DNA from: a virus
Taxonomy: Duplodnaviria; Heunggongvirae; Uroviricota; Caudoviricetes
Reading direction: 5' to 3' (one strand)
Virus record (IMG/VR): IMGVR_UViG_2563366854_000001
Span: 1 to 22,290 of that record
Length of the DNA stretch: 22,290 nt
Within the stretch, counting starts at the first letter, position 1. The number at the start of each line of letters is the position of its first letter. Positions 2,713 through 15,134 of the stretch are shown one piece after another. The notes beneath the pieces were generated by a model. The model saw only the letters and a list, made by a program, of their open reading frames with translations. It did no database searches and was not told the DNA's origin. Position numbers and translations under genes: made by a program.

Positions 2713-3537
2713 TCAGGCGGTGAAAGTACCAATAAAGGTTTCTACTTTGCTGTCTTTGAATTTCTCAACAAGCAGATCACGAAATTCGTTAGCCATTTCT
2801 TCCTGCACCGCTTCCAGCTGAATAATGCGCAGAACCAGTACAGGACGATCGCCAGTGATAATGCTGAGGCGTAATTTAAACGGACGTTCTTTCAGACCTT
2901 CAAACGGAACGCATTTAAATTCAAATGCCACTGGCATAATGTCTTTGGTCTTCGCTTCGACAGACTCCATCAGGGAGCGTTTGCCGCTGAAGTCATTATC
3001 TTCAAAATCAGCGGTCTGGTTTGCTTCAATCGTGATTTTACGGACTGCCGCAGCCGCTTTTGTTGCTTGAATGGCGTCACCATTAGCATCAAAGCCCACA
3101 AGGTAGTCGGCCCAGTCTTCGATCCATTCTGCCAGTGACCTCTGGGAGTTACGCTCGCCGTTAACAGACAACAGAGCAGAGAACGGTGCTGTCTTTTTCA
3201 GTTTGAGAGTGGCAGTGTTATCTGCGTGACCTGGCTCATCAATAGTACCCAGGTTAAGCACACTGACGGCACGCATATTATCGGCATCGATAAAGCAGCG
3301 GGTGCCTTCATCTGCAAGATCTTTAGAATAACGGGTAAAATCATCGATGCTGGCAGTGGAAAGTGCACCACGGAAACGGAAGCGATTTAAATTAAATTTT
3401 TCCAGATCATGAATGCGGAAATTCTCAGGCAATGCCACAGCATCGGCACCAATCTTACTGATAATTTCATTAACACCCTGAGCAGAAATAAGGGCATGGA
3501 TTTGATTAATTGCGGTTGCGTCTAAGTTCTGAGACAT
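2713..3537 (-). CDS. Conserved prophage protein, YfdQ-like
   Basis: 274-aa ORF with GAGGA 7 nt upstream of ATG; length and neighbourhood match the yfdQ position of KplE1/CPS-53-type prophages (recognition from memory). Confidence 0.65.
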
Positions 3538-3602: not shown

Positions 3603-3965
3603 TTAACGACCTGCTGCGCGGAGTTTTCCGTCAGGTTCACCGGCAAGAGTCAGTAATTGTCCCTGGTCTTCCTGCAGAATAGTCAGGCGACCACCGCGAT
3701 TGACATACATCGGCGTTTCGGTGGTGTCTTCTTCGGAAATTTTCCCGCGGTTAGTTGGGCGAACATATGAGAGTTTGTGTTTGATTTTCACACGGTTCTC
3801 ATCAAACGGTTCGATTTCCAGATTGAGTGAGACCTTCCCTTTGGTTTTCGTGTTCATCACACCGGAAGCGACCTCACTGAGAACTGCGCCGATTTTGGTT
3901 TCAAATACGCCGCCGTCCAGCTCCCCGATAAATGCCTGCACATCAGTACTGCGTTCGCTAGCCAT
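3603..3965 (-). CDS. Hypothetical phage protein (YfdP-like by size and position)
   Basis: Start at internal Met MASERSTD (GAGGAG-N8-ATG at 3963-3965); 120 aa. The longer 182-aa ORF upstream of this Met lies in GC-rich non-coding-looking sequence. Confidence 0.6.
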   Translation of the reverse strand: MASERSTDVQAFIGELDGGVFETKIGAVLSEVASGVMNTKTKGKVSLNLEIEPFDENRVKIKHKLSYVRPTNRGKISEEDTTETPMYVNRGGRLTILQEDQGQLLTLAGEPDGKLRAAGR

Positions 3966-4426
3966 TTTGCTGCTCCTCATCATATCGACCCTGCAAGGTC
4001 GGTTGGTTTCTCCACAAAACAGAGAAGAACACCTGCGGTGGCAGCCGCCCGGATGGATTGGGTTATGAGCCCGTCGTCCGGTGATGCTCTTCTCTGTTTT
4101 GTAAAAAGAGCGGTGCCAGCCGGAAGCAAGTGTACAAACTGGTACCGCCAAAGCAGTGGCTGTTGTGGTGCCGGGTGCCTCCCGGTGCCTGGCGAAGGTT
4201 GCACACCAGGCGGGTGGGTATCCACAGAAGGTCGACTGTCAGCCTCAACCTTAACCCGCGTGCGCTGAGCCGCATTCACCACAACGCTAAGGATTCTCTC
4301 TGGTTGAAAATACTTAGCTGTTATGTGCCTGCTTTTAGCCACATCAGGCGAGGTGGACCTGGTTATTCCCCAACAACAAGGATTCGGTTAATCTTGATAC
4401 CCCCAATAACATGGTGATTATTTAAG
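3966..4426. promoter_or_regulatory. GC-rich ORF-free divergent intergenic region with a long inverted repeat; candidate divergent promoters and/or structured RNA
   Basis: All frames carry overlapping junk-like ORFs; 17-bp inverted repeat (4015-4031 vs 4085-4101, one mismatch) enclosing a 53-nt GC-rich segment; flanked by divergently transcribed genes. Confidence 0.3.
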
Positions 4427-4930
4427 ATGGACAAATTTGATAGAAGTGCACAAAGGCAGTTGTTACAAATACTGTATGATGCTCATCCTTATGAAATTTC
4501 TGATGATGCGTTGCAGTCTGTTCGTGACGCATTTGGAGATGATAATGTCCTAATTTCGAACTTAATTTATCTCGAAGAACATGGCTTGATTAAGAATGCT
4601 CTTGATTATTACTTGGATGGCATAAATATAAATATTCCTGAATTAAGAATTACTAAAGATGGAATTGATTTCATTCGTGATGATGGAGGTCTTAAAGCTA
4701 TTCTTGGGATTATGACAATAAGATTGCATGATGAGACTCTCTGTGAACTTGAACGTATCATCAATAGTTCTACTTCTGCCACGACTGAAGATAAGAAGAA
4801 ATTACTCTCTCAGCTTCGAACGCTTCCTGCCGACGCCATAAAACAGCTGACGATTCGATTACTTGGTCAGGGGCTTGACCATCTGCCGGACGTATTTCAC
4901 GTAATTCAAAAAGCCCTCCATTCTCTGTAA
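4427..4930 (+). CDS. Hypothetical protein, putative N-terminal winged-helix domain (AT-rich accessory gene)
   Basis: 167-aa ORF starting at ATG 4427; AT-rich codon usage unlike flanking genes; motifs LIYLEEHGLIKN and ITKDGIDFI resemble wHTH recognition helix and wing. Confidence 0.6.
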   Translation: MDKFDRSAQRQLLQILYDAHPYEISDDALQSVRDAFGDDNVLISNLIYLEEHGLIKNALDYYLDGININIPELRITKDGIDFIRDDGGLKAILGIMTIRLHDETLCELERIINSSTSATTEDKKKLLSQLRTLPADAIKQLTIRLLGQGLDHLPDVFHVIQKALHSL

Positions 4931-5108
4931 ATTCTGATTCTGGTCGGATTAGACAGAATCGTCCCCATCCGACCTGCTTACTAAGTAGAATCCAGAATTC
5001 GTCTTGTTGGTTGGTGCTGATAAAAAATCCATTAGGATGAACGTAAGCACAGAATATGACCATAGAACCCTCTTTTGTTACGGGGATACTAAGATTGTTA
5101 AAGAGCTA

Positions 5109-5131
5109 AGCGTCCTGTAGGGCGCTTTTTT
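5109..5131 (+). terminator. Rho-independent terminator-like hairpin
   Basis: AGCGTCC-TGTA-GGGCGCT (7-bp stem with one G-U pair) followed by TTTTTT; about 180 nt downstream of the 4427..4930 stop. Confidence 0.5.
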
Positions 5132-5216
5132 GTTGCTAACGAATCATCCGGTCATTCATACGCCACCGGCGGCTACTTCGTGGGCGTCCTGCCTGTCCGT
5201 GATAGCTTACATTATG

Positions 5217-5288
5217 TTGCTACTTAAAGTAGCAAAAATCAACAACAAAAAGTAGATATTTGTTGTTGTCTATGATTTTTCTATAATT
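5217..5288. promoter_or_regulatory. Operator-like palindromes plus a sigma70-like plus-strand promoter
   Basis: Near-perfect palindrome TTGCTACTT-A-AAGTAGCAA (5217-5235), related to the 13-bp motif repeated next to cI/cro; second inverted repeat AACAACAAA-N9-TTTGTTGTT (5241-5267); TTGTTG (5260-5265), 16-nt spacer, TATAAT (5282-5287). Confidence 0.4.
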
Positions 5289-5426: not shown

Positions 5427-5446
5427 GCCCGGTTATGCGGCCGGGC
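5427..5446 (-). terminator. Hairpin immediately downstream of the ParA-like gene (candidate terminator)
   Basis: GCCCGG-N8-CCGGGC; on the minus-strand RNA it is followed by UUUACUCUUCUUUCU; begins 8 nt after the ParA-like stop. Confidence 0.4.
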
Positions 5447-5453
5447 ACATGCA

Positions 5454-6530
5454 TTACTTTGTAAGTTCTAGAACTCGTTGAGCCAGCCCTTTAAATTGTT
5501 CGTTAAAGGCGTCTCTGCTTGATTTCATTGTATTTAAGGCATGCCCAAATTGCCCTGAATCGCGAATTTGCTGATCACTGATGGAGAAAACAGGTGTCGC
5601 TAGTTGTTGGCTTATTGCGATTAATGAGTTGAAATCGGAAATATGCGCAAGATCATAGGCTGATAAATCTCCACTGACTGTTGTTTTGTTAATTGCATGT
5701 TGCACTTTATCTCGTGGAATTATGCAGGTAATTTTTTCTAGATTTGGCACTAAGATCGAATCAACAGCATCACGGATAGCTGCCATCCATTTTTCGAAAG
5801 ATTTTACAGGTGCTCCTTTACGCGGCCTGTATCTCTGCTGAATCATACCTAGAAACTGCGGTGCATTTTTAATTGATTGTGAAGAGTTACCATCATTATT
5901 TTCTTTAAATAATGCTAATTCTTTGTGCCAGCGAGGTATATTTTTTGAGAGAGAGCGAATTGCTTGCCAGCAAAAAAAGTCTGGAGCTACAGGTACGATA
6001 AAATAGTCACTTGACATGAGAACTACTTCATTTAAACCTCCAACATTAGGGCTGAGATCATAAAGAATGTAATCAATATTATTCTTCATGGCGATTAGCT
6101 GTAATATTTTTGGCAGGTTCCCTGGTATATTTCTTGTAGCAGGAATACCAGCAGCAATTTTTAGAGAAACACTTATCTGTGAATCTAAGTCCGAAACATC
6201 TAAATGTCCGGGAAGAAGCAGAAGGTTTTCATGCAGTGTAGGGTGTAATTTTCCCGTTTCTTTTTCAAGGTATGCTTCAGGTTGTCCGCCATTAATCAAA
6301 TATTCTACAATAGGTCCAAGAGTTAAGTTATCTCTGCTAGAATAAAAAGAATCTAAACCCTCATCAATCTTTTCATAGCCAAGAACCATTCCTGTTAGAT
6401 TACATTGCGAATCAAGGTCAACCATCAATACTTTCTTGCCTTCATCCGCAAGTGCCCATCCAAGATTGAAGGTTGTTGTGGTTTTACTTACCCCACCTTT
6501 ATGATTAAAAAAACAAATTGATTTTGTCAT
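5454..6530 (-). CDS. ParA/MinD-family P-loop ATPase with long C-terminal extension (orphan; no ParB partner seen)
   Basis: 358-aa ORF; deviant Walker A NHKGGVSKTTT near the N-terminus, VLMVDLDSQCNLT motif, Walker-B-like ILYDLSPNVGG; AGGA upstream of the ATG; AT-rich; same strand as and directly downstream of the cI-like repressor. Confidence 0.8.
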   Translation of the reverse strand: MTKSICFFNHKGGVSKTTTTFNLGWALADEGKKVLMVDLDSQCNLTGMVLGYEKIDEGLDSFYSSRDNLTLGPIVEYLINGGQPEAYLEKETGKLHPTLHENLLLLPGHLDVSDLDSQISVSLKIAAGIPATRNIPGNLPKILQLIAMKNNIDYILYDLSPNVGGLNEVVLMSSDYFIVPVAPDFFCWQAIRSLSKNIPRWHKELALFKENNDGNSSQSIKNAPQFLGMIQQRYRPRKGAPVKSFEKWMAAIRDAVDSILVPNLEKITCIIPRDKVQHAINKTTVSGDLSAYDLAHISDFNSLIAISQQLATPVFSISDQQIRDSGQFGHALNTMKSSRDAFNEQFKGLAQRVLELTK

Positions 6531-6700
6531 ATTTCTCTATCCTTTCGACCCCCAGCATATTGTAATTTACGCTGGGTGATTATTTTATATTGTTAATGAT
6601 AATGTTTAATAAAAATAAGAGAGTAAAACAACTATTAGTAATAGCACTTGCTTGATAAATATTATTTTTTCACCTTTAGTTCTATAGTCTAAACGAAGAA

Positions 6701-7462
6701 CTAAAGCCGGTTGTATTTAATTGATTCGTGTATCAATGCTTTGCCCATAACATAAAGTTGATCTTGGGACTTCTCATCAATGTACCATTTCTCATAGGCT
6801 GGATTATCCGAAAGAACGGCGAGTTTGTTGCCTTGCATTTGTAGACGTTTAACGTGGAACGTCTTACCATAAACGAAAGAGTAAACACCATCAGTTTGGA
6901 AGTTGCGAACAGAAATGTCGACAAACAGTCGATCTCCGGAAACTAGAGTAGGGGACATGCTGTCGCCATTTACAGTCATAACTTTAATATCATCTTGAGA
7001 ACGATTACCGAAAAGAGAACGGGCATGCTCTGTTGTGAACTCAATGGCGTAGAGCACATCAACATAGTCTGAAAGCATATAGGTTCCAGGTCCTGCGCTA
7101 ACGCTAAGATCCAAAACTTCTATCCTGTATACATCGGGTTTTGTTGGATTGGGGATGCTTGCCATTTCCTTACATCCTTCTCTCTCGCCAACACCATATT
7201 CTAAATATGAAGCTGATACCCCCAGAGCCAATGCAAGTTTATTCATGACAGAGGCACGAGGCTTCGCAGCGCCGATTGTGTATCGCCGCGCCATTTCATA
7301 TGTAACGCCCACAAGACTTTTGAGTTGGGTGACAGAAATTCCCTTGTTTGTCATTAGCTCGTTTAGTCTCTTGGCGAAATCTGGATACTTCTGTTCTTCT
7401 ACCATAGGTAGAAGGTTACTCGCATCACATACGCTAGTCATTTCTATTTTAAGTAGTTGCAT
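6701..7462 (-). CDS. cI-like prophage repressor (XRE-type HTH plus S24 LexA-like peptidase domain)
   Basis: HTH LMTNKGISVTQLKSLVGVTYEMARRY; Ala-Gly cleavage-site-like SAGPG; S24 motifs VNGDSMSPTL and KRL. Start is ambiguous (7462, 7441 or 7405) with no strong SD, so it may be leaderless. Confidence 0.85.
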   Translation of the reverse strand: MQLLKIEMTSVCDASNLLPMVEEQKYPDFAKRLNELMTNKGISVTQLKSLVGVTYEMARRYTIGAAKPRASVMNKLALALGVSASYLEYGVGEREGCKEMASIPNPTKPDVYRIEVLDLSVSAGPGTYMLSDYVDVLYAIEFTTEHARSLFGNRSQDDIKVMTVNGDSMSPTLVSGDRLFVDISVRNFQTDGVYSFVYGKTFHVKRLQMQGNKLAVLSDNPAYEKWYIDEKSQDQLYVMGKALIHESIKYNRL

Positions 7463-7503
7463 TCTGCTATTTTAAGTAGCATCATCCCTCTGAATTTCAG
7501 AGG
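7444..7503. promoter_or_regulatory. Immunity-region operators between cI and cro
   Basis: Two identical 13-bp copies CTATTTTAAGTAG (7444-7456 and 7467-7479, 23 bp centre to centre) plus palindrome CCTCTGAA-T-TTCAGAGG (7487-7503) overlapping the cro SD. Confidence 0.55.
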
Positions 7504-7511
7504 AGAAAGGT

Positions 7512-7775
7512 ATGTCATCTCAAAACTACACAGAGAAAGCAGTAAAAGCTGCGGGAAAATCTTTATCTGAAGTAGCCCGTCACTTTGGTTTTAAGTCCAC
7601 TCAATCCGTCGCTAATTGGGTAATTAACAATCAAGTCCCGTCAGAACGGGTTTTACAACTTTGTGAGTTGGGAAACTGGTCCGTGACCCCTCATGAACTG
7701 CGTCCTGATATTTACCCCAATCCAAATGATGGATTACCTGAGTGCTATTCAAAAGTTAGCGGTTCAGCTGCGTAA
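7512..7775 (+). CDS. Cro/YdaS-like HTH regulator
   Basis: 87-aa ORF with GGAGAAAGG upstream; divergent from cI across the operators; C-terminal ELRPDIY resembles the YdaS family (memory-based). Confidence 0.7.
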   Translation: MSSQNYTEKAVKAAGKSLSEVARHFGFKSTQSVANWVINNQVPSERVLQLCELGNWSVTPHELRPDIYPNPNDGLPECYSKVSGSAA

Positions 7776-12658: not shown

Positions 12659-12675
12659 TTTTGTGGAGAAAGTTA

Positions 12676-13059
12676 ATGCGTGATATTCAGATGGTTCTTG
12701 AACGTTGGGGAGCGTGGGCGGCTAATAATCATGAAGATGTGGCCTGGTCGTCCATTGCCGCCGGTTTTAAGGGATTAATTCCTTCAAAAGTAAAATCTCG
12801 CCCGCATTGTTGTGACGATGACGCGATGATCATTTGCGGGTGCATGGCCCGTCTGAAAAAGAACAACAGCGATTTACACGATTTATTAGTAGATTATTAT
12901 GTATGTGGTATGACATTCATGTCACTGGCAAGTAAGCATTGCTGCTCGGATGGTTATATCGGGAAAAGGTTACAGAAGGCTGAGGGCATAATTGAAGGGA
13001 TGTTAATGGCATTAGATATCCGGTTAGATATGGATATCGTTGCTAATAATTCTAATTGA
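12676..13059 (+). CDS. Q: Late-gene antiterminator Q
   Basis: Start at [22 protein letters not shown] (GGAGA-N7-ATG); Q-family-like sequence with Cys-rich zinc-binding region; sits upstream of a hairpin terminator and the lysis cassette. Confidence 0.8.
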
Positions 13060-13247: not shown

Positions 13248-14330
13248 TTAGAACTGATAAACCAGACCTACAGCGACGATGTCGTCGGTATCAATACCAG
13301 CTGTTTTGGTAAACTTACTATCGTCAATTAAGTTGATTTTGTAATCAACAAAAGTAGACATGTTTTTATTAAAGTAGTAAGTAGCACCGACATCGACATA
13401 CTTGACTAAGTCTCGGTCACCATGAACACCAAGGTCTTTACCTTTTGACTGAAGGTAAGCAACAGATGGGCGCAGACCGAAGTCAAACTGATATTGTGCT
13501 ACTGCTTCAAAGTTTTGTGCTTTGTTTGCAATATGGTTATTACCAAAAACGGTCATATTCTGAGTTTCAGAATATGTGGTAGCCAGATAGATATTGTTCG
13601 CATCATATTTCAGGCCTGCAGCCCATACTTCCGCATTTTTGCCGGAGGCATTGAATTTGCTCTTACCATAGGCGACCTGACCGTCAGTGCGATCTGATTT
13701 AGCATAGGTTGCACCCACGCCGAATCCTTCATACTCATAAGTAGTGGAGAAACCGAAACCATCACCATTGGCTTCAGTTACGTCAGTGCGGTCATTTTTA
13801 CCCTGATACTGAGCAGCAAAGTTCAGGCCATCGACCAGACCAAAGAAGTCGTTGTTACGATAAGTTGCAACACCAGTAGTGCGACCAGTCATGAACACAT
13901 CTGTTTGGGTCCAGGTATCACCACCGAATTCTGGCAGAACGTCAGTCCACGCACCGATGTCGTATGCTACACCGTAGTTACGGCCGTAATCGATGGAGCC
14001 GTAATCACCAAATTTCAGGCCTGCAAATGCAAGACGGGTTTTGTCTTTGGAAGAACCTTGAGATTCAGCACGGTTGCCTTTGAATTCATATTCCCACTGA
14101 CCGAAACCAGTCAGTTGATCGTTGATTTGGGTTTCACCTTTGAAGCCAAGACGGGCATAAGTAGTATCACCATCATCTGCATCATTAGAGGAGAAGTAGT
14201 GCTTGGCATTAACTTTCCCGTATAGATCCAGCTTGTTACTGTCTTTATTATAAATTTCAGCTGCCTGAGCAGACATCGCCATCAGTACTGATGCAGCTAC
14301 AGCAGAAATTGCCACTGTTAATTTTTTCAT
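13248..14330 (-). CDS. nmpC: Outer-membrane general porin, OmpC/NmpC family (lysogenic-conversion moron)
   Basis: Start at internal Met [23 protein letters not shown] (signal peptide); porin hallmarks AEIYNKD...LDLYGKV and C-terminal GLVYQF; lies between Q and the holin, as nmpC does in DLP12-type prophages. Confidence 0.85.
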
Positions 14331-14756
14331 TGTACGCCCTTTTTTTGAACTATTATTAAAAAATGATGTCACTGCGCGATAAATATTCATCTAATCAATG
14401 TGATTATTTCAAGATGTAAGTTTTAGTTTCTCATTTAATTTGTGAAGTAGATCTCTATTTTTATCTGAACCTTTTCTATCTAATCCTATTCATGGCTCTT
14501 GTCTGAACAAAAATAAATCTATTAGCTAATTTATATTAATGGCACTTATTTATAAGTGCTCTATAATTCTTTAGCTTAATTTAAACAAACTAAAAATAAC
14601 ATCGGAAATTATTAACTGATTATTTGTTGAAGTTTTCTTATGTATTTGTGGTGGTGTTTTGAACACTCGGTGGCATTCTCACAAATATCATTTAGTAGTT
14701 TACGTACGTAAAAAATTGGTTATGCTGTTAAGAGTGGTTACTTCGTCACACAGCTT

Positions 14757-14918: not shown

Positions 14919-15134
14919 ATGAAATCCATGGATAAGTTAACAACGGGTGTCGCCTATGGCACCTCAGCAGGTAGTGCCGGTTACTGGTTTTTACAGCTGC
15001 TCGATAAAGTCACGCCCTCACAGTGGGCAGCAATAGGTGTGCTGGGTAGCCTGGTATTTGGCCTGCTGACGTACCTGACAAACCTTTATTTCAAGATTAA
15101 AGAAGATAAGCGCAAGGCTGCGAGAGGTGAATAA
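14919..15134 (+). CDS. Class II holin, phage-21 S-type pinholin with dual-start motif
   Basis: 71 aa, [29 protein letters not shown]...; Met1-Lys-Ser-Met4 dual start; two TM segments; charged C-terminus. Confidence 0.9.

Follow-up and report, generated by a model that had tools for sequence, protein, structure and literature searches.

The window, a 22,290-nucleotide (nt) stretch of DNA (positions 1 to 22,290 of IMG/VR virus record IMGVR_UViG_2563366854_000001), is an Escherichia coli lambdoid prophage of the SfV/ST64B-like type, and we found that a gene within it for a 167-amino-acid (aa) protein shares its 3′ end with a second, unannotated gene for a 97-aa protein on the opposite strand. 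The two genes form a conserved two-gene accessory (moron-type) module of temperate gamma- and beta-proteobacterial phages, and we are highly confident in the conservation of both the pair and its architecture. In the window the module consists of the following.

4427–4930, + strand: the 167-aa gene, an open reading frame (ORF) from ATG to TAA.
5063–4770, − strand: the 97-aa gene, unannotated and converging on the 167-aa gene; MVIFCAYVHPNGFF...VLWRRQEAFEAERVISSYLQSWQK.
4770–4930, both strands: the dual-coding overlap, the last 161 nt of the 167-aa gene, in which the second positions of small-gene codons face the third positions of 167-aa-gene codons.
5068–5072, − strand: a Shine–Dalgarno (SD) sequence, GAGGG, recognized from the sequence 4 nt 5′ of the ATG of the 97-aa gene; homologues have similar ones.

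Comparison with its relatives confirmed that the 167-aa ORF is no chance ORF and represents a real gene. The protein matched phrog_3983 over its full length (E = 2.6e-59), and a profile search of 1.84 billion representatives returned 1,132 relatives (347 at E ≤ 1e-30), nearly all of them stand-alone proteins of 155–175 aa. Homologues occur in phages of Edwardsiella, Pseudomonas, Klebsiella, Acinetobacter and Halomonas and in prophages of Enterobacterales, Xanthomonadales, Burkholderiales and Neisseriales, with overall proportions of nonsynonymous (pN) and synonymous (pS) differences of 0.39 and 0.82. Neither protein of the pair had a significant match in Pfam, NCBIfam, PADLOC or PDB sequence searches; for the 167-aa protein the best Pfam hit, DUF1542 at E = 0.012, was under threshold, and PDB gave no sequence match with either the single sequence or the profile. 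Rfam yielded a single hit, under threshold and attributable to chance. We found no description in the literature of the 167-aa family (WP_000357060, phrog_3983) or of the 97-aa family.

The 97-aa gene was found by clustering all ORFs around 27 loci homologous to the 167-aa gene. Hidden Markov models of both proteins then placed the small ORF at 90 of 108 loci, with overlaps of 152–218 nt; every pair is convergent and overlaps at the 3′ ends, and the length of the overlap leaves a remainder of 2 on division by 3 in all 46 distinct pairs. Searching in the other direction, from the small protein, recovered a full-length 167-aa gene at seven of eight further loci. The small-protein alignment is conserved throughout, including the approximately 44 first residues that lie outside the 167-aa gene, and its motifs (HPNGFF...FWVLLS..LGWGRF, then GGLFEL.E.R.A...P......S.VLWR..EA) are common to phages of Pseudomonas, Acinetobacter, Burkholderiales and enterics. 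Most of the small ORFs start with ATG after a site of the GGAGG-, GAGG- or GGGGG- type; the copy in the window reads AAGAGGGTTCTATG. The 97-aa protein has an isoelectric point (pI) of 4.9. The small family conserves mainly Gly, Pro and hydrophobic residues together with one Arg, a pattern that fits a binder better than an enzyme. The 167-aa protein conserves polar residues (R6, Q9, H52, D81, D86, H101 and K123). Databases hold few entries for it: five from a single-sequence search of 5.8 billion proteins and 77 from a profile search, all hypothetical and none with a Pfam domain, and RefSeq has nothing annotated at the 97-aa gene in NCTC86. The family is rarely called by gene finders because it overlaps a gene that is called.

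Several loci depart from the standard arrangement. One viral contig (L118, 2206–3571) carries the whole two-gene module in two tandem copies. Two Acinetobacter prophages (L113, 4155–4457, and L115, 2993–3295) have an intact small gene and a decayed 167-aa gene, of which only about the last 50 codons remain, 64% identical to the AbIPP1 homologue; this surviving remnant is what the small gene requires to encode its C terminus. A shorter subfamily of the 167-aa protein (approximately 150–156 aa), with another C-terminal tail and without the small partner ORF, occurs in Klebsiella-type and related prophages (L103, L104, L107, L111, L019 and L098) and may be a natural solo variant.

Substitution patterns point to coding on both strands. 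Outside the overlap, pairwise pN and pS of the small ORF were 0.38 and 0.78, differences at the three codon positions were 0.43, 0.32 and 0.62, and the ratio of nonsynonymous to synonymous substitution rates (dN/dS) was approximately 0.21 for unsaturated pairs. Inside the overlap the pS of the small ORF was 0.34, and that of the 167-aa gene was 0.48, compared with 0.82 outside it. As a control, at 18 loci without the small ORF the pS of the 167-aa gene was 0.81 in its body and 0.78 in its last 55 codons. The drop in the 167-aa gene fits the geometry, in which its third codon position faces the second position of the small gene. When the last codons of the 167-aa gene were shuffled synonymously, the antisense frame stayed open in 1.8% of cases (median 0.5%); it is open in 46 of 46 distinct pairs, which were chosen for having the ORF. 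These patterns show both genes to be under purifying selection, and dual coding is established as far as sequence analysis reaches.

Alternatively, the antisense ORF could be non-coding. RNA structure or antisense-RNA regulation would then account for the constrained 3′ end, and the ORF similarity would be a shadow of 167-aa protein conservation. Shadow ORFs do arise in this family, as antisense ORFs lying wholly within the 167-aa gene cluster across seven G+C-rich loci, and gene finders hardly ever predict the small ORF. This explanation has to contend with approximately 44 initial codons that lie outside the 167-aa gene and yet show the third-position bias and low dN/dS given above, with a conserved SD and ATG, with a frame that is open against an expectation of 1.8%, with amino-acid motifs kept between phages of distant hosts, and with the two Acinetobacter prophages that keep the small gene intact though the 167-aa gene has decayed. 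On this comparative evidence the non-coding explanation is largely refuted, and we consider it very improbable. Antisense ORFs that code have reportedly been described in E. coli, for example laoB opposite a CadC-like regulator gene. The present small gene resembles that case in being a coding ORF on the antisense strand missed by annotation pipelines; laoB-type cases are young, taxon-restricted overprints, whereas the present overlap spans several orders of Proteobacteria and has an unchanged frame in 46 distinct pairs.

The sequence upstream of the 97-aa gene connects it to the early-left promoter of the prophage.

5242–5214, − strand: putative PL, TTGATT-17-CAACAT, with operator CTACTTTAAGTAG in the spacer (OL), assigned by analogy with PR.
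7457–7485: PR, TTGCAT-17-CATCAT.
5108–5127, both strands: a G+C-rich hairpin from a terminator scan, followed on the + strand by TTTTTTG.
5106–5095, − strand: a boxA-like element, GCTCTTTAACAA, directly after the hairpin (5127–5108) on that strand.

The putative PL assignment follows from a mirrored PR: positions 5214–5259 match OR at 7440–7485 as a 46-nt inverted repeat containing operator CTAYTTTAAGTAG, of which OL has one full and one partial copy and OR two copies 23 nt apart, and the two promoters are built alike, with the operator within a 17-nt spacer. The boxA-like GCTCTTTAACAA, which we take to fit the rrn-type boxA consensus TGCTCTTTAACAA, probably marks a nutL-like site; from it the SD is 23 nt and the ATG of the 97-aa gene 32 nt further on. 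The 97-aa gene is the first ORF after PL and this site and would head an N-type antiterminated PL transcript as its first cistron. The leader block at 5092–5203 is conserved in SfV and Kati, and it looks like a nutL-type module shared by SfV-like and related lambdoid prophages. The block is present at approximately 88–98% identity in approximately 1,500 of 5,426 complete E. coli genomes, regardless of the cargo or immunity region next to it. On the + strand, the hairpin and its TTTTTTG imply that the 167-aa transcript should end only past the whole 97-aa gene, including its ribosome-binding site. As a general trait, a terminator of the 167-aa transcript beyond the start of the small gene was rejected, being found in only 10 of 46 modules.

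Across phages, the small gene typically belongs to a lytic operon in which the 167-aa gene stands alone on the antisense strand: of 46 distinct modules, 37 have a co-directional gene upstream of the small ORF, and in 24 the small ORF shares its strand with the genes on both sides. Among the neighbours are Q antiterminators and lambda-S-type holins, one on each side (the Q–S slot), cro-like genes, cI-type repressors, HNH endonucleases (between lysis and terminase genes), tape-measure genes and Bro-N. The positions taken up (behind PL/nutL in the window, behind cro, between Q and holin, behind lysis or tail genes, and next to cI or Mnt-like repressors) are classic moron slots. A hairpin followed by a T-run on the small-ORF strand ends 7–28 nt before the start in 23 of 46 modules, compared with 10% of random windows, and two further loci (L065 and L070) have a similar hairpin hidden by the choice of start. 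Such a hairpin leaves no room for a promoter downstream of it, so that transcription can reach the small gene only by reading through the terminator. At other loci the module or the 167-aa homologue adjoins regulatory genes: in AbIPP1 the homologue lies behind cI in the same orientation, in GF-2 an Arc/Mnt-like repressor gene, placed opposite arc-ant, has a stop codon that the homologue overlaps, and in L112 the module follows cro. The cI (AbIPP1) and Arc/Mnt-like (GF-2) genes would be expected to be active in the lysogen.

The module behaves as exchangeable cargo.

4411–5091, both strands: an exchangeable cassette holding exactly the two genes, between flanks common to Kati and SfV.

Kati, SfIV, SfII and SfV are 93–97% identical to the window in the flanks of the 167-aa locus, and blastn alignments break at 4410 and 5092 against Kati and at 4356 and 5138 against SfV. 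The same slot in Kati, SfV and IHE3034 holds other cargo, none of it related to the 167-aa/97-aa pair; that the IHE3034 and Kati genes might be diverged alleles of one and the same family was ruled out by BLASTP. In SfV (L005, 3196–3655) an unannotated 81-aa ORF on the + strand faces orf33 (98 aa, − strand) with an 83-nt overlap, in Kati (L006, 3227–3854) a 144-aa + strand gene faces a 68–73-aa − strand gene with a 29-nt overlap, and in IHE3034 (L008, 3101–3616) there is a single + strand gene for a 171-aa coiled-coil-like protein. The slot may generally accommodate two-gene cassettes that place one gene on each strand.

The 167-aa gene has marks of a moron: exchangeable cargo at a fixed slot, deviant G+C content and orientation against the flanking operon. 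A terminator was found for it, and the candidate promoter is a weak consensus match. Genes antisense to prophage lytic genes and with their own transcription are typical accessory loci, among them STMMW_20121 of ST64B and STnc6030 of BTP1 (PMC7067206). The present locus shares with such morons low G+C, counter-operon orientation, a flanking terminator and presence or absence in near-identical prophages; a moron is usually a single self-contained unit, whereas here an opposite gene belonging to the lytic transcript is added, with an overlap of approximately 55 codons. The candidate promoter is as follows.

4394–4421, + strand: a sigma-70-like match, TTGATA-16-GATTAT, a weak candidate matching at 9 of 12 positions.

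We did not retain it as a consensus promoter of the 167-aa gene: the match is weak, such matches are no more frequent across the region than in shuffled sequence, and its −35 element is not kept in Kati or IHE3034. A 16-nt direct repeat, GGTGATTATTTAAGAT at 4413–4428 and GGTGATTATTTTATAT at 6575–6590 (14 of 16 identical), has one copy just 5′ of the 167-aa gene and the other in the cI–ParA intergenic region. Its copies are not equivalently placed relative to the genes, and we dropped it as a shared regulatory site; it may be a chance occurrence in AT-rich DNA.

An earlier note on this DNA, made from the letters alone, had proposed a DNA-binding winged helix at the N terminus of the 167-aa protein on the basis of two motifs, and had suggested structure prediction as a check. 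In the AlphaFold model, built from a 27-sequence alignment with a predicted local distance difference test (pLDDT) score of 77.8, residues 6–84 run helix–helix–helix–strand–strand–helix at pLDDT 86–90 and are predicted to form a three-helix bundle with a β-hairpin wing, bearing out the fold. Both motifs are present, with LIYLEEHGLIKN mapping to helix 3 and the start of the wing and ITKDGIDFI to the helix following the wing. The invariant DDGGL motif (86–89) falls within a low-confidence stretch (86–96), and a C-terminal helical domain is modelled at approximately 89–166. At the level of this model, then, the fold stands; the DNA-binding function does not fare as well. The N-terminal domain has a pI of 4.36 and a net charge of −9, and helix 3, which would be the DNA-reading helix, carries 0–3 Lys or Arg (mostly 0–1) and 1–6 Asp or Glu in all 27 aligned members. 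Measured against MarR-, PadR- or ArsR-like regulators, the protein has the fold and lacks a basic recognition helix or wing and a match to a curated family. Its N-terminal domain structurally resembles the winged helices of the YjcQ, MarR and PadR types (PDB 2hgc, 6c28 and 4asn), and Foldseek against viral models gave weak YjcQ-like matches; it differs from these types in being acidic, in having a helix 3 nearly free of Lys and Arg, and in adding the DDGGL linker and the C-terminal domain. The 167-aa protein had no match to Pfam YjcQ (PF09639) at threshold, the PhiR49_2 homologue scored only E = 0.18 (12.5 bits against a cut-off of 23.3), and no relative of the C-terminal domain was detected when it was searched as part of the whole protein. 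With its acidic winged helix, the protein is more likely to bind another protein, or to act as a nucleic-acid mimic, than to bind an operator, and the predicted charge argues against a conventional operator-binding regulator.

The earlier note also placed the gene next to a ParA-like gene and suggested that it could be a regulator or effector of that neighbouring module.

5454–6530, − strand: the ParA-like gene, encoding a 358-aa ATPase, directly 3′ of cI in the position of rexAB.
5446–5427, − strand: the terminator of the ParA-like gene.

Its description of the setting was accurate: the gene is AT-rich and unlike its flanking genes (34.5% versus 54% G+C; 0.345 over 4401–4800 and 0.54 over 3801–4400), with the early-left genes (− strand) to its left and the ParA-like gene (− strand) to its right. 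The corresponding explanation is that the 167-aa protein is a winged-helix regulator or effector of the ParA-like ATPase, either partnering it as a ParB-like protein or adaptor or acting as its transcription factor. The supported fold would suit such a role, 60 E. coli genomes have the two genes side by side, and both lie within the same AT-rich stretch, the low G+C extending on through the ParA-like gene and part of cI to approximately position 7000. Co-occurrence, the check that the note had proposed, speaks otherwise. Among the 5,426 complete E. coli genomes surveyed, the 167-aa gene was found in 76, the ParA-like gene in 109 and both, as a contiguous pair, in 60, so that each separates from the other; IHE3034 keeps ParA and cI with its unrelated gene in the 167-aa slot, and in H43 and L036 the 167-aa gene is accompanied by another immunity region. 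In four phage records the 167-aa homologue never neighbours a ParA gene, and no recurrent ParA neighbour was seen among the other compared loci. The two genes share no operon or fixed arrangement: they are on opposite strands, and the terminator at 5427–5446, OL/PL (5214–5259) and the nut-like site lie between them, placing them in different transcription units. The helix that would read DNA is, in addition, acidic. Co-occurrence thus largely refutes the partnership, to which we assign a minimal probability. The gene and its fold survive from the earlier reading and the ParA link does not; the note had missed PL/OL and two terminator-like hairpins between the two genes, the antisense position of the 167-aa gene within the PL transcription unit, and the second gene on the opposite strand overlapping its 3′ end. 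As for the ParA-like protein itself, only its N-terminal P-loop region matches ParA/MinD models (AAA_31, E = 2e-29), PADLOC gave a weak match to candidate PDC-M28B over residues 3–40 only (E = 6e-9), its copies in the 109 E. coli genomes are 99.9–100% identical, and no ParB-like partner was evident.

The layout of the module suggests a switch. In the lysogen, the 167-aa protein would be made from its own promoter or that of the repressor gene, and its acidic winged helix would bind protein or mimic nucleic acid rather than bind an operator; its transcript, antisense over the entire small gene and its ribosome-binding site, would keep the small gene silent. On the turn to lytic growth, antiterminated transcription from PL, PR or PR′ would read through to make the small protein, and this read-through would silence the 167-aa gene via convergent transcription and antisense pairing. 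The 167-aa protein would be a lysogen effector, acting in superinfection exclusion or defence or as a brake on lytic growth, and the small protein its cognate antagonist, freeing the phage's own lytic cycle. This is our best overall explanation, which we hold at slightly below even confidence. Mutually exclusive expression of the two genes is the part that we favour, if only slightly; the effector and antidote roles are tentative, and we would sooner expect them to be revised than upheld. Weighing against a strict dependence of the two genes on each other are that each can occur alone, that the orientation of the AbIPP1 module is discordant, and that the slots occupied imply different timing.

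A phage locus with related logic is P22 SieB/Esc, in which an abortive exclusion protein and a self-protecting product come from the same locus. The likeness, of logic only, is that of a PL-proximal lambdoid accessory locus with one DNA stretch for effector and antagonist; Esc is an in-frame internal product of the same strand, whereas the present pair is on opposite strands. Neither the 167-aa nor the 97-aa protein matched SieB (PF14163) in Pfam or PHROG searches.

The position of many modules beside repressor genes allows a different function, a second immunity or lysis–lysogeny control, in which the 167-aa protein would stabilize the lysogenic state, perhaps by using its acidic winged helix to sequester an antirepressor, antiterminator or replication factor, and the small protein, produced from lytic transcripts, would antagonize it, tuning the phage's own switch rather than acting on other phages. 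A cI-type repressor lies within 3 kb at 12 of 27 loci, the module follows cI (AbIPP1), cro (L112) or PL/OL (the window) or is coupled to an Arc/Mnt-like gene (GF-2), and a convergent, mutually antisense layout suits a bistable switch. Many copies, however, are well removed from any immunity region (in the Q–holin interval, following Rz or HNH, or following tape-measure genes), the module is dispensable among near-identical prophages, with Kati, SfV and IHE3034 carrying other cargo, and core switch parts are not usually exchangeable cargo. We consider this function unlikely.

The antisense layout equally invites a reversed toxin–antitoxin (TA) or abortive-infection system, in which the small protein would serve as a toxin or as an early effector aimed at the host, freed by terminator read-through, including read-through by the antiterminator of a superinfecting phage, and the 167-aa protein and its antisense transcript would be the antitoxin shielding the lysogen. 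The 167-aa transcript would cover the SD and start of the small gene, in the manner of type I TA; about half of the modules have a terminator immediately before the small ORF; and loci with only the 167-aa gene are commoner than those with only the small gene. Cis-antisense pairs with 3′-overlapping convergent transcripts include TxpA/RatA, BsrG/SR4 and lambda cII/oop, and the present units are likewise convergent, with RNAs that would be complementary over approximately 160–700 nt. Type I geometry would fit the window, where the + strand terminator (5108–5127) lies beyond the SD and ATG of the small gene (5061–5072), and such a terminator occurs in only 10 of 46 modules. Type I TA differs in pairing a non-coding antisense RNA with a short hydrophobic toxin: here both partners are conserved proteins under purifying selection, and the 97-aa protein is no short hydrophobic peptide. 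Type II TA is a poor fit too, as there is neither a co-directional bicistronic operon nor a recognizable toxin or antitoxin family or fold. A reversed TA system seems to us quite improbable.

The remaining landmarks of the window are those of a lambdoid prophage.

1–1164, − strand: integrase.
Left of the 167-aa gene, − strand: early-left genes, yfdP/Q/R/T-like, including DUF2303 at 2713–3537.
6701–7462, − strand: cI-type repressor, S24/HTH.
7512–7775, + strand: cro-like gene.
12661–13059: Q.
14919–15134: holin.

At 3603–4342 (− strand) the window has two overlapping ORFs (3603–4151 and 3980–4342) that in Kati are one 226-aa gene with a YfdP-like C terminus and an N-terminal extension, and the upstream counterpart in IHE3034 is marked in RefSeq as a frameshifted pseudogene. 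The window may therefore carry a frameshift in this first conserved early-left gene, whose product could be an N-like factor. Between Q and the holin, at 13248–14390 on the opposite (−) strand, lies a 380-aa OmpC/NmpC-type porin gene with a G+C content of 0.30–0.40; many homologues of the two-gene module use this same Q–S moron slot in other phages.

Counter-oriented prophage cargo and antisense ORFs in E. coli are both of known kinds. We found no prior description of a conserved pair that shares approximately 55 dual-coding codons across distant phages with one member wired to lytic read-through. The pair is a clean, phylogenetically deep case of long antiparallel dual coding with an internal control in the partnerless loci, and it bears on the open debate over whether prokaryotic antisense ORFs are functional. 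It also uncovers a protein family that is almost never predicted by annotation pipelines, and it corrects a plausible but wrong guilt-by-association tie to the ParA-like gene.

The module uses slots of exclusion, defence and virulence cargo (PL-proximal, Q–S, and beside cI or Mnt), and the tying of one gene to lytic read-through, with the other counter-oriented, offers a testable idea for how a prophage function might be shut off during the phage's own lytic cycle. It is possible, at somewhat long chance, that the module represents a widespread and unrecognized two-protein phage switch, in which an acidic winged-helix effector of the lysogen and its antagonist from the lytic transcript would be encoded on opposite strands of the same 150–220 bp and the direction of transcription would pick the protein. 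If so, it would be a new coupling of prophage exclusion or defence, or of lysis control, to self-immunity, and few antiparallel dual-coding overlaps known from bacteria or their viruses would be as deeply conserved.

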